A program made the translations under genes and the position numbers. 64,000 bases of DNA from positions 32,283 to 96,282 of IMG/VR virus record IMGVR_UViG_3300036834_000231, one strand, 5' to 3'. A model generated the notes under the pieces. The model saw nothing but the letters and a program-made list of their open reading frames with translations. It ran no database searches and was not told where the DNA came from. The DNA is from a virus. Positions 33,088 to 36,555 of the stretch are shown piece after piece (positions within the stretch are counted from its first letter, which is position 1; every line of letters begins with the position of its first letter).

Positions 33088-34380
33088 TTGTCGAAAAAGA
33101 ATGACCTTTCGGCCTCGGAAAAAGCTGTCAAGGCGCTGGTGAAGCAGGACAAGCCGGCGCCGGAAAAACACCCCATCGTCTGCGTGCAGTGCGCGAAACA
33201 GGCCATGATCGCGAAACGCCCGCCCACCGGTTGGAAGAACCACGAAGAGGCGTATTGGTGCAGCGAGTGCTGGAACAAGCGCTATGTGCTGCGCGCCATC
33301 TCGCTCGAGGTTACCCAGTCGATGGATTGCACTTGGGACGAGCTCTTTAAGAAGCTCAAGGTCATGTGGGAGCAGACGACGCAATTGAGCAATTATCTGG
33401 TGACTCAGCTCGTCATCGCCGACGTGCACCGCCGCCCGAACGAAGCGAAGAAACCCGCCGAAGACCCGAATAAAATGCCCGGCCGGCCCGAGACGTACTT
33501 TTATCCCGAACTCGGCGAACAGTTTCCCGATCTGCCGCCGCCCGTGCGCGCGAGCTTAGAGAAGAGCATCACGGCGAAGTACAGCAAAAAACGCTGGGAC
33601 GTCATCTGGTCCTGCCGCGCGAGCTTGCCGATCTTCCGCTACCCGCAGCCTTATCCCATCCCGGCGCAATGCTGGTCCGCGGAGCTTGTCGACGGCTGGC
33701 CGATCGTCAACATGCGCATCGGCGAAGGGCGCCTGCGCTTGCGGCTCAAAGGCATGCCGAAGTATAAGCGCCAGTTGATCAGCTTTCGGGATATCTTGCG
33801 GGGCTACGCGGTCCCGGGCGAAGCCGCGTTGTATGAAAAGGGCTCGACCCTCATGTGCAAATTGGTCGCCTGGCTGCCGCGCCGGGCGCAGGACGGCAAC
33901 TATGGGGACAACGTGCTCTTCGTGCGTTCCACGCCCGACGCCTTGCTCGCCGCCTTAAATGTGAAGGAAGAGAAGCTCTGGCAGTATCACGCCAGCCATA
34001 TTCACAATTGGATCGCCGAACACCGCCGGCGCTTGCAGGAGTGGGCCGACGACAGCAAGGCCGAAGCCCGCCCGCATCCCGCTTTGAACGCCCGCCGGGC
34101 GGCCGCCGCCACGAAGTACCACCACCGCATGAATACTTGCGCCGATCAAGCCGCCAGCTACCTCGTGCGCTATGCCGTGCGCCGCAAATACGGCGTCTTG
34201 CGCTATGACGACTCCGATAAGAGCTGGTGCCCCTTATTCGTCTGGTTCAAGCTGGAGGATCGCATCAAAACGCTGTGCGACGAGTTCAATGTGCGCTTTG
34301 AGAAGGTCGAACCCGCCGCCGCCGAAGGTACTGAAACTACTAAAACCAAGGGTAGAAAGAAAAAGGCCATGCCCGCGTAG
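33088..34380 (+). CDS. Nuclease-dead Cas12f/TnpB-like RNA-guided DNA-binding protein (430 aa)
   Basis: N-terminal CxxC..CxxC; Cas12f-like WED/REC segments (LEVTQSMDCTWDELFKKLKVMWEQTTQLSN; SLPIFRYPQPYPI; FRDILRGY); RuvC-I GID replaced by FVRS; KYHHRMNTCADQAASYLVRYAVRRKYGVLRYDD (helix plus RuvC-II, E to D); WFKLEDRIKTLCDEFNVRFEKVEP; ends before the TNB zinc finger and RuvC-III. Confidence 0.75.
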   Translation: MSKKNDLSASEKAVKALVKQDKPAPEKHPIVCVQCAKQAMIAKRPPTGWKNHEEAYWCSECWNKRYVLRAISLEVTQSMDCTWDELFKKLKVMWEQTTQLSNYLVTQLVIADVHRRPNEAKKPAEDPNKMPGRPETYFYPELGEQFPDLPPPVRASLEKSITAKYSKKRWDVIWSCRASLPIFRYPQPYPIPAQCWSAELVDGWPIVNMRIGEGRLRLRLKGMPKYKRQLISFRDILRGYAVPGEAALYEKGSTLMCKLVAWLPRRAQDGNYGDNVLFVRSTPDALLAALNVKEEKLWQYHASHIHNWIAEHRRRLQEWADDSKAEARPHPALNARRAAAATKYHHRMNTCADQAASYLVRYAVRRKYGVLRYDDSDKSWCPLFVWFKLEDRIKTLCDEFNVRFEKVEPAAAEGTETTKTKGRKKKAMPA

Positions 34381-34579
34381 TAGAGTGGAGTGGGCTACCG
34401 ATAGGCCCAGCGCGGTCACTGCCTGGAACGCTTGCCGACCAGAGCACCTGCGAGAGGCTGGTTCGCCGGCAACGGCGAAAGAAATACTCAGGATATTCGG
34501 CGCTTGCGCCGTCAGCCCTGGGGGCTACCTTTTCATCCCGACGCCCGAGGCTCGCCCTTTTTCTGGGAAATAGCTTCGG
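34381..34579 (+). ncRNA. Putative omegaRNA/tracrRNA-like scaffold with anti-repeat
   Basis: Several hairpins (TGGGC/GCCCA; TTGCCG-ACCAG..CTGGT-CGGCAA; TCGCCG-GCAA-CGGCGA; GGCGC/GCGCC; AGCCC/GGGCT); CCCGAGGCT at 34544-34552 is complementary to the array repeat. Confidence 0.65.
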
Positions 34580-36555
34580 TAGACTCCGATTTCGATCAAC
34601 CTCTGGACGCTTCGGTTAAACGTCAACAAATGGCGCTGCGGTTTAAGGGCTTCGGTACGGTCCGCGTCGCATGGCCTGGTCCCGTCATTGCCGACCCTGC
34701 TTTACCTGGAGGCCCGTCAAGCAAGGCAGCCTCGGGAGGTCAGCGAAGACGGAATAGTCAGTTTGGCGAGAAGTCACCCAGCGAGTGGCTATTTGGCGGC
34801 TAAGGGACGCTTCGGTTAAGTATTCAAGTCACAACGCTTTGCGCACTAAGCCTCGGGTCCCGTCGCACTTGATACGCCTCGGTAAGGAAGACGGGATTGG
34901 CTTCGGTCCAGTTGGACTAATCGTTGAGTTGGCCTCGGTTTGCAGGGTTACGTCGGCCTTTAACGGTGGCGGCTTCGGTCTCTACACGGGAGCCTCGGGT
35001 GGCAGGATTTTGAGGTTAAAAACCGACAGCCTCGGTTTTGGTGGGCCTGGAGCCTCGGGTAAAGTTCACGTGAAATGGGAGGCCTCGGTGGAGTATTTGA
35101 ATGTCTTCACATGTAGCCTCGGGTGAAGTTTGATTTCCGCTTCGGCGTCCGCTTGTCTAGCTTCGGGAAGTTCCTGCTTGGTTCGCAGCTTCGGATGAAG
35201 TTCGTTCCGCTTGGTGTCAGTGAGGGTCAAAGACTAGCTTCGGCAATAGCCTTAGCGACGAGCGCATGGCTTCGGGAACAATTGGAAGCCTCGGGACCGC
35301 ACTTTCACTGATTTTGCGTAGCCTCGGGTGAAAGTCCTAGTTGCCGCTTTGGTTCAGCTTCGGTTTGAAGGTATTGATTGGCTTCGGCTAGACGATGACC
35401 GCCGCCTCGGCAAGCACTGAAGGGAAACGTCTCGGCACCGCACTCTCCCAGAGATCGGTTGGAGCTTCGGGAAAAGCCGGGAAAAGTCCGTACGCTGGAG
35501 CTTCGGGAAAGATGAAGTGGGCTTCGGCACGCGCAAGTAGCCGCGGCGAAACGGCGAAACGCAAAGCCTCGGGTACGGTGCCCATAGAGCCTCGGCGTGA
35601 GAATTCTCAGTGGCCTCGGGAACAGAAACGCGGACTTCGAGGGATGAAGCTTCAGGACCAGTCCGAGCACGAGGTCGCCTCGGCCCCAGAATTATCAGTG
35701 AAGCCTCGGGACAGAGATCCGTCTTGCGAGCGAAGCCTCGGGATAAATGGCATGTGCAAGCCTCGGCGAGAACTAGCTTCGGCATTCGTTTGAGCAGAGT
35801 TATGGAATGGCCTCGGTGGTTCAAAGGATGGTCTCGGGTATTACGCTGTTGAATACGGCGGCTTCGGAGGACAAGCTGGAAGGAGCTTCGGTGTAGAGCG
35901 GCGGCCGAACGGTTGGCCTCGGCAGGTGCAGGAGCAGCTTCGGGCTTAGAGGGAGCGCGGTAGTATCGGGATCGAGATGTTAGACCTTGGTGGCTTCGGG
36001 GAGACAGATGGAGAGCCTCAGGCTAATCCCGATTAGGCCGGTCAGCCTCGGGTCCATTTGCCTCGACTGTTGGGGGTGGCTTCGGGGAGTTCTTCGAGGA
36101 CAAGGTAAGGGCCTCGGGGCAAGCAGAGGTGCGGCAGTGCCTCGGTAGCTGATCGGGTAACTTTGTAGCTTCGGGAGAAAGGGGTATGTGGGCTTCGGTT
36201 TCTGGCCGATGCGCGATAAGCGGCTTCGGTAATAAATTGGTAGCTTCGGTTCATTTGCGGCGGGCTGGTGGCTTCGGTTCATTTGCGGCGGGCTGGTGGC
36301 TTCGGTCCAGGGGCGAGTGAGTTATTCGGTGACGAGGGCTGGTAGCTTCGGTATCAGCCTTTGCAGCGCGCGCCAGATGCGGAATCAATCCTCCGTACGT
36401 TCGCTTCGGGAAAAGAAAAGGATTAGCCGTTGCGGCGGCGGCTTCGGTCACTCGATTTTTGCCGATGCGCGATACGGCGGCTTCGGTTTGACTACGCCGA
36501 CAGTCTCGGTTCATTTGCTGCGGGCTGGCTTCGGGGATGGTCTGGTAGCTTCGGG
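34572..36555 (+). CRISPR. Non-canonical CRISPR-like array: about 58 RGCYTCGG mini-repeats with variable spacers (mostly 9-34 nt)
   Basis: Manual count of 58 exact GCTTCGG/GCCTCGG copies, all on the + strand, first at 34573 and last at 36548, plus about 10 near-variants; no credible ORF in the region. Confidence 0.75.

Follow-up and report, generated by a model that had tools for sequence, protein, structure and literature searches.

A predicted nuclease-dead Cas12f derivative, its scaffold RNA and a 58-unit mini-repeat array in a soil phage

Several RNA-guided proteins of the TnpB/Cas12 tree control transcription without cutting DNA, including Cas12m (type V-M) and TldR, which are carried on plasmids and prophages and block transcription of rival elements or retune host genes (PMC11656645; PMC13622181). 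A nuclease-dead Cas12f associated with sigma-E (dCas12f-sigmaE; Flagellimonas taeanensis, PDB 9n9c and 9n9m) has a solved structure, and Hoffmann et al. (Nature 2026; PMC13472631, text and Extended Data Fig. 1a,b) mention in passing a further, uncharacterised cluster of dCas12f associated with CRISPR arrays, which has covarying guide scaffolds, no rpoE and a target predicted to lie ahead of an efflux operon, and for which repression is suggested. Here, we analyze a locus of this kind in a soil phage. It lies in a 64,000-nucleotide (nt) stretch of DNA, hereafter the window, that forms the 3’ two-thirds of the 96,282-bp virus record IMGVR_UViG_3300036834_000231 (86% complete by CheckV; 59% G+C), and it consists of a gene for a predicted dead Cas12f, a non-coding stretch and an array of 58 short-repeat units, contiguous and all on the plus strand.

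The family to which this locus belongs is of the same kind as the Hoffmann cluster and, compared by description, may be that cluster. Both combine a Cas12f-derived effector truncated in the C-terminal part of RuvC with a covarying scaffold in the intergenic region upstream of the array, both lack an rpoE partner and are proposed to repress, and two of our single-guide relatives (L030 and L031) adjoin efflux-type (MacB/FtsX) genes. The Hoffmann cluster differs in coming from bacterial metagenome-assembled genomes (MAGs; the example is from Chitinophagaceae) with ordinary arrays, and its description includes no phage setting and no repeats of 7–12 nt. A preliminary description of the window, made from the letters alone, had known of no described system with this architecture; it is not wholly undescribed, since array-associated dCas12f with a covarying scaffold was already mentioned in that work. 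Our literature search found no description of type V arrays with 7–12-nt repeats, and the mini-repeat array and its phage setting appear to be new.

Other described systems are more distant. Cas12m and TldR resemble the phage protein in the RNA-guided DNA binding without cutting that we propose for it, but they belong to other branches of the TnpB/Cas12 tree; the phage protein is not of the ~600-residue Cas12m type, TldR uses a single omega-RNA guide, and Cas12m draws its guides from normal arrays by its own processing. Solitary repeat units and viral CRISPR mini-arrays are likewise phage-borne guide or repeat elements without adaptation genes that serve conflict between viruses. They are, however, copies of the host’s full-length repeats and depend on the host’s Cas proteins, whereas the present locus has its own effector, its own scaffold and repeats reduced to one arm.

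The kinship of the protein with Cas12f is visible only through a family profile and fold searches, and searches with the protein against Pfam, PHROGs and, as a single sequence, the PDB returned no match. We collected 78 close homologues and 860 cluster representatives at 50% identity (E ≤ 1e-3), a family found mostly in soil Acidobacteriota and their phages. A profile of 29 members matched OsCas12f (PDB 9nzq) at E 3e-12, and also AsCas12f, SpCas12f1, TnpB and the ‘nuclease-deactivated Cas12f’ 9n9c. An AlphaFold (AF2) model with a mean predicted local distance difference test score (pLDDT) of 89.8 matched the WED-REC-RuvC architecture of solved Cas12f structures, and Foldseek placed it closest to AsCas12f (8j12_A; E 1e-17, template-modeling (TM) score 0.6), with AsCas12f, OsCas12f and SpCas12f1 together spanning E 1e-17 to 5e-14 at TM 0.6. 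Cas12m2 structures fell far below Cas12f, at only E 1e-6 and TM 0.3–0.4.

The model shares its fold with dCas12f-sigmaE as well (Foldseek E 3e-15 against 9n9c), although sequence identity is only 13–15%, and the two proteins end at the same point: the profile alignment reaches position 379 of 398 in our family and residue 362 of 365 in 9n9c. An active Cas12f carries an intact RuvC D-E-D triad and a C-terminal zinc ribbon. In the phage protein the first catalytic aspartate is replaced by Arg280 (family consensus LxVRT at this position), the catalytic glutamate is replaced by Asp374, and the chain ends about 55 residues past the RuvC-II position, so that the RuvC-III aspartate and the zinc ribbon are absent. 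These differences set it apart from the type V-F nucleases (AsCas12f, 8j12 and 7wju; OsCas12f, 9nzq), which are its best structural and profile matches and which likewise place the guide 3’ of the repeat. A further difference is an extra N-terminal zinc finger, which lies before the part that aligns with AsCas12f; PDB profile alignments begin only at profile positions 53–57. The preliminary description had proposed a dead Cas12f-like protein, and the profile and fold searches bear this out: as modeled, the protein is best described as a predicted nuclease-dead, C-terminally truncated Cas12f derivative. Given a dead active site, it should bind DNA without cutting it.

Directly downstream of the gene lies a structured RNA candidate. 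An alignment of 20 loci yielded a consensus of three hairpins and a closing helix, with compensatory changes in 16 of 19 pairs; an additional helix, formed by AGCGCG with CGCGG, is likely, the alignment being ambiguous there. The covariance model built from this alignment (R1) matched just downstream of the gene, on the same strand, in 28 of the first 30 loci (viral and MAG) and in nearly all of the 79 metagenome loci that retain downstream DNA, about 90 loci overall. Rfam gave no match in the window, scaffold included. On the strength of the covariation, the ~190-nt stretch is identified as a predicted conserved, covarying scaffold RNA. In some loci (L006, L008, L018 and L054–56) the scaffold is present in two to four copies. 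One further locus (L111:808–1677) has four scaffold copies with a period of ~251 nt after a fragment of a dCas12f gene, an arrangement of tandem full-length guide RNAs and not an array. Some loci of dCas12f-sigmaE, whose guides also lie 3’ of a stem-loop scaffold, have comparable tandem full-length guide RNAs.

The array that follows is built on the 7-nt core GCYTCGG, present in 58 exact copies (24 GCCTCGG and 34 GCTTCGG) whose start-to-start distances range from 16 to 80 nt with a median of 32, giving a median spacer of about 25 nt. This falls outside the format by which CRISPR arrays are recognized, namely direct repeats of ~23–55 nt at regular intervals, as even the looser consensus around the core, GGTRGCYTCGGK, extends to only 12 nt, and it compares with repeats of about 36 nt in type V-F systems. 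Core density is 29 per kb in the array against 0.33 per kb on the plus strand of the rest of the 96-kb genome, and the window as a whole holds 91 matches to GCYTCGG where shuffled sequences gave 37.7 ± 7. Cores with one mismatch number 10 in the array, close to the ~8 that chance would give; the core therefore occurs intact or not at all, and it has been kept exact. Spacers are mostly unique: only 7 of 1653 pairs exceed the 0.1% null, chiefly through one segmental duplication at the distal end. In these respects the preliminary description, which had reported three contiguous same-strand parts with a ~190-nt non-coding middle, 58 exact copies and mostly unique spacers, stands unchanged. It had also recognized no cas1 or cas2; the 96-kb record contains no detectable Cas1 (PF01867), cas2 not having been searched separately, and no integrase was found in it. 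With no cas1, cas2 or cas4 recognized, the locus also differs from the type V-F nuclease systems. Several spacers resemble ribosome sites followed by start codons, an idea that we dropped, as ATG occurs 22 times against 30 expected and GTG 28 times against 54.

Comparison with relatives points to the origin of so short a repeat. All repeats in the relatives end in ...CGG(G), and the full repeat is a hairpin in which a 5’ arm (CCCG...) pairs with the 3’ arm; the canonical repeat of one relative (L013) ends in GCTTCGGG, the very core of the phage array. Most relatives carry every guide on such a 36-nt hairpin, whose 3’ arm adjoins the spacer, so that the two arms make up a natural repeat:anti-repeat stem. 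The complement of the repeat that the preliminary description had noticed in the scaffold region, CCCGAGGCT, is indeed present there, and it occupies the position that the 5’ arm of the first repeat takes in the relatives. It forms a complete hairpin with the first unit of the array, and every later unit retains the 3’ arm only. From these correspondences the 7-nt core can be identified as the 3’ arm of the ancestral 36-nt hairpin repeat.

Several results point to selection on RNA pairing between the two arms. Predicted duplexes of the array units with the 5’ arm average −18.8 kcal/mol, against −8.8 kcal/mol for other positions in the array. The variable base of the core (C or T) stands opposite a G, giving G:C or G:U, and the base preceding the core is A or G, opposite U, in 50 of the 58 units. 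When the 5’ arms and mini-repeats of the five mini-array loci were paired in all combinations, the cognate duplex was the most stable in its row in every case, clearly so for the window, L006 and L003 and weakly for L007 and L096. What the preliminary description had proposed to look for in homologues is in part seen among the relatives: the scaffold follows the gene in the loci counted above, arrays follow it in many of them, and repeat and anti-repeat covary in the five mini-array loci. Coordinates of all features are collected in Table 1.

Table 1. Features of the phage locus, in window coordinates.
Feature	Position	Strand	Details
dCas12f-like gene	33088..34380	+	430 aa if read from TTG 33088; GTG 33139, the start in the database copy, is the more probable and gives 413 aa
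N-terminal CxxC...CxxC zinc-finger module	33181..33270	+	C32, C35, C58 and C61; all four almost without variation across alignments A1 and A2
RuvC-I position, LFVRST	33916..33933	+	Arg280 faces the catalytic Asp of GVDMG (hidden Markov model alignment to 9nzq)
RuvC-II position, LRYDDS	34198..34215	+	Asp374 (YDD) faces the catalytic Glu of Cas12f
Non-coding stretch	34381-34572	+	192 nt between stop codon and array
Predicted conserved scaffold (tracr/omega-like) RNA	34385..34521	+	4 nt past the stop codon; covariance model R1, 87 bits, E 9e-19
Small hairpin with U-tract, terminator-like	34514..34536	+	in a 26-nt insertion between scaffold and anti-repeat; from a consensus scan only
Anti-repeat, 5’ arm of ancestral hairpin repeat	34544..34552	+	CCCGAGGCT, exact complement of AGCCTCGGG; single copy in the scaffold region
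First complete repeat hairpin	34544..34581	+	5’ arm, 20-nt U-rich loop and first 3’ arm, AGCTTCGG; RNAfold 8-bp stem, −16.9 kcal/mol
Mini-repeat guide array (candidate)	34573..36554	+	58 units of the 7-nt core GCYTCGG with mostly unique spacers
Only spacer with an outside match	35089..35115	+	exact 21-nt match in a DUF4417 gene; the phage concerned is AT-rich and unrelated; 5’ flank CTTC
Segmental duplication, distal array end	36192..36534	+	a 28-nt unit occurs at both 36243 and 36271, and copies that have diverged lie at 36441-36527

The relatives form a continuum from single guides through canonical arrays and hybrids to pure mini-repeat arrays. Single scaffold-hairpin-guide units occur in five loci (L024, L027, L028, L030 and L031). 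Canonical arrays, in which 36-nt hairpin repeats alternate with ~36-nt spacers at a period of 70–76 nt, follow the scaffold in L009, L012, L013, L015, L016, L022, L026, L029, L060 and others. Hybrid arrays begin with normal units and continue distally with short ones (L001, L005 and L025), and pure short-repeat arrays are found in L006 with GGTCACYTCGGG, L003 with GGAAGCTGCGGG, L007 with GATCGKTCGGG and L096 with CGCTGCGG. The five mini-array loci, the window included, are scattered on the protein tree, where L007 clusters with one canonical and one hybrid locus at 99% support in the Shimodaira–Hasegawa-like approximate likelihood-ratio test (SH-aLRT), and the well-supported branches require at least two origins of the format, a count taken from a quick tree in which the window’s own branch is long. 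No conserved protein-coding neighbor or partner gene was found across 29 loci. With single, tandem full-length, normal, hybrid and mini formats side by side, the family lends itself, as a natural series, to the study of how guide RNAs come to split or fuse.

Targets were sought for the spacers of the phage and of its relatives. The clearest matches come from the Acidobacteriota MAG G003, in which two spacers of a canonical array (L026) match 36 of 36 nt, and a third ~26 of 32, in two other integrated elements of the same genome; these elements carry integrase, replication-initiator, XRE-type helix-turn-helix (HTH) and PD-(D/E)XK genes. The 5’ flanks of the three protospacers are CTTT, CTTC and CTTC, or CTTY, a T-rich protospacer-adjacent motif like that of the type V-F nucleases and different from the single G of dCas12f-sigmaE. 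Matches of an array to its own genome would be tolerable only with an effector that does not cut. Two sequences of this MAG (L026:2912–3316 and L040:1–610) hold near-copies of one array at the ends of two large contigs, with variant spacers against the same HTH gene; such arrays seem to break assemblies, and their spacers seem to diversify against alleles. The additional spacers of L040 and the eight of another canonical array (L029) had no match in their own genomes.

A different kind of target is suggested by a canonical array whose first spacer (L069:5317–5351) is antisense to the 3’ end of tRNA-Arg (32 of 35 nt in sampled genomes). The 3’ ends of tRNA genes are a usual kind of integration site, and the L069 element may guide its dCas12f to an attachment site. 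A 47-nt sequence 180 nt beyond the same array (L069:6107–6153), with matches in 238 genomes, was rejected as a spacer; it is a tRNA-Arg fragment, an att-like site. Two diverged single-guide loci beside MacB/FtsX permease genes (L030:1333–1345, from the unpublished genome G002, and L031:7434–7446) share the first 13 nt of their guides (ACGCAGCAGTGGA), and the L031 genome has this 13-mer again at a TQQW motif of three TonB-dependent-receptor-like genes, one of which matches over 14 nt and has a TTC flank; we take this recurrence as only a lead. None of the other claims draws on the unpublished genomes G056 or G159.

The spacers of the phage itself matched its own 96-kb genome no better than reversed or shuffled spacers did, which rejects self-regulation, and they had no match in 23 related viral loci or in INPHARED. 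Scans of IMG/VR with seven of them gave one match, the other six scans none. The gene matched (Table 1) is L136:1092–2162 of IMGVR_UViG_3300037492_000387, a phage with direct terminal repeats, and its neighbor codes for an N6/N4 DNA methylase. When the array was compared by BLAST with 401 sampled Acidobacteriota genomes, only weak matches resulted, and those that recurred were rejected as host targets: they are GC-rich chance matches that span repeats and fall in unrelated hydrolase and beta-lactamase-like genes. Judged by analogy with the relatives, the targets of the window phage are most likely other mobile elements or the host loci that such elements use. The matches in the relatives, to integrated elements and a tRNA site, suggest that mobile elements fight one another, or control each other’s traffic, by binding alone and without lethal effect.

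We consider it likely that the locus is a phage-borne, adaptation-less CRISPR module derived from type V-F, in which a nuclease-dead Cas12f serves as a compact multi-guide device for binding, and thereby silencing, DNA, much as a natural form of CRISPR interference would. In the model that we infer, from transcription and processing through alternative pairing to DNA binding, repression and the phage’s targets, gene, scaffold and array would probably be transcribed as one unit, in which the scaffold begins 4 nt past the stop codon. The dead Cas12f would bind the scaffold. Any one of the 58 3’ arms could become the partner of the single 5’ arm, either in cis, both being on the one long transcript, or in trans once the RNA has been processed. 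The spacer of the paired unit would then be positioned as the guide, giving rise to a population of complexes with different guides, each of which could bind CTTY-flanked DNA in a rival element or a host locus and there block transcription or some other process that acts on the DNA. The array has been compacted, each unit retaining a 3’ arm (GCYUCGG, loosely 12 nt) and a ~25-nt spacer, which together are about as long as a mature CRISPR RNA (crRNA) of type V.

A further claim, about which our judgment is evenly divided, is that mini-repeat arrays are a working and repeatedly evolved form of guide storage, in which one scaffold bearing the sole 5’ arm would be paired in turn with dozens of 3’-arm-only units, at ~32 nt per guide and without full repeats or Cas1/Cas2. 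Such a natural design of one tracr and many minimal crRNAs would give phages multiplexed and non-destructive silencing of rival elements or host loci. The preliminary description had suggested that one scaffold pairs with any of about 60 minimal crRNAs; covariation in five loci supports the pairing, but the anti-repeat is not free, being engaged in an 8-bp cis hairpin with the first unit. Its companion idea of a multiplexed binder directed at host or competitor DNA agrees with the spacers of relatives that match mobile elements of the same genome, and for the window phage it can draw on one suggestive protospacer only.

Several observations weigh against these proposals. As the first unit already engages the 5’ arm in a cis hairpin, the other 57 units would have to compete with that hairpin, so that pairing of the arm with them, in trans or as an alternative fold, is put forward as a hypothesis. 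The duplex of 8–9 bp is far below the length of repeat:anti-repeat pairing in characterized Cas12f, and some spacers are very short (9–14 nt). The scaffold sequence of the window, folded singly, is no more stable than its shuffles (z 0.42), which leaves covariation as the support for its structure. Finally, the searches described above found no target for 57 of the 58 spacers, and the 21-nt match of the remaining one is weak when taken alone, as we estimate roughly 0.1–1 chance matches per scan with a 20-mer.

The dearth of targets also suits an alternative in which the array is a decaying relic, an old CRISPR array eroded by deletions of which at most the first full hairpin unit still works, as a single guide. 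The position of the mini units at the distal, older end of hybrid arrays, the local duplications at the distal end of the phage array and the lack of detectable Cas1 (with the limit on cas2 given above) would all be expected of such a remnant. Neutral decay, however, would scatter mutations through the core, whereas near-misses stand at chance level beside 58 exact copies and variation is limited to changes that preserve pairing. Mini arrays are moreover present in five or more loci, the repeat of each being suited to the 5’ arm of that locus, the unit has the size of a mature crRNA, and effector and scaffold are intact; we therefore regard a relic as unlikely. An RNA-guided transcription activator, which would bring RNA polymerase and a sigma factor to the sites chosen by its guides as does the sigma-E-associated dCas12f of Bacteroidota, is suggested by the place of 9n9c among the best structural matches and by its identical C-terminal truncation, and the phage does encode a sigma-70-family protein (window 5661–6260, plus strand; Sigma70_r2, E 2e-8). 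That gene, the only sigma gene found, lies 27 kb upstream of the dCas12f gene and outside any operon with it, the locus differs from dCas12f-sigmaE in having no adjacent sigma-E or HTH gene and in its many-guide array, the 29 loci surveyed for neighbors share none that codes for protein, and the CRISPR-associated dCas12f cluster has been described without rpoE association and with repression suggested (Hoffmann et al. 2026, PMC13472631). An activator is, on this balance, quite unlikely.

Two further readings are less credible still. The 58 copies of a repeat fragment could act as a decoy RNA, an anti-CRISPR that soaks up a Cas12f-type effector of the host or its trans-activating crRNA (tracrRNA), much as the solitary repeat units carried by phages inhibit host Cas proteins (PMC11656645). 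Yet the phage supplies its own matching effector and scaffold, its repeat covaries with its own 5’ arm instead of a host repeat, unique spacers of guide-like length would be superfluous in a sponge, and true spacer–protospacer matches exist in relatives, all of which makes a decoy very improbable. The repeats could instead act as DNA, as an array of protein-binding sites for partition or packaging or as a regulatory landing pad, and a short, exact, irregularly spaced motif held strictly on one strand would be typical of such clusters. We give this reading the least credence of all, because in the relatives this motif forms the 3’ end of a genuine CRISPR repeat, because it changes between loci together with its RNA partner sequence, and because the array always stands after the scaffold RNA and on the strand of the effector.

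If the mini units of the proposed silencing module are functional, a type V effector could be programmed through a handle of 8–9 bp, with an obvious use in multiplexed CRISPR interference. The phage would store 58 guides in 2 kb, at ~32 nt each against ~72 nt in a normal array, which to our knowledge would be the most compact natural format for multiplexed guides. Standard CRISPR detection, which relies on regularly spaced repeats of 20 nt or more, would then be missing a whole class of viral arrays.

The remainder of the window has genes for a terminase, a portal protein and a DNA methyltransferase. A region of ~3.6 kb (21666–25292) is nearly devoid of open reading frames with high G+C at third codon positions (GC3). 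The large terminase gene (43839–46706, plus strand; 955 aa) has PHROG matches in separate N- and C-terminal parts, the pattern that an inserted element, for example an intein, would produce. Near the start of the record, positions 106–206 repeat its final 100 nt, a sign of either overlapping termini or circular permutation of the assembly.

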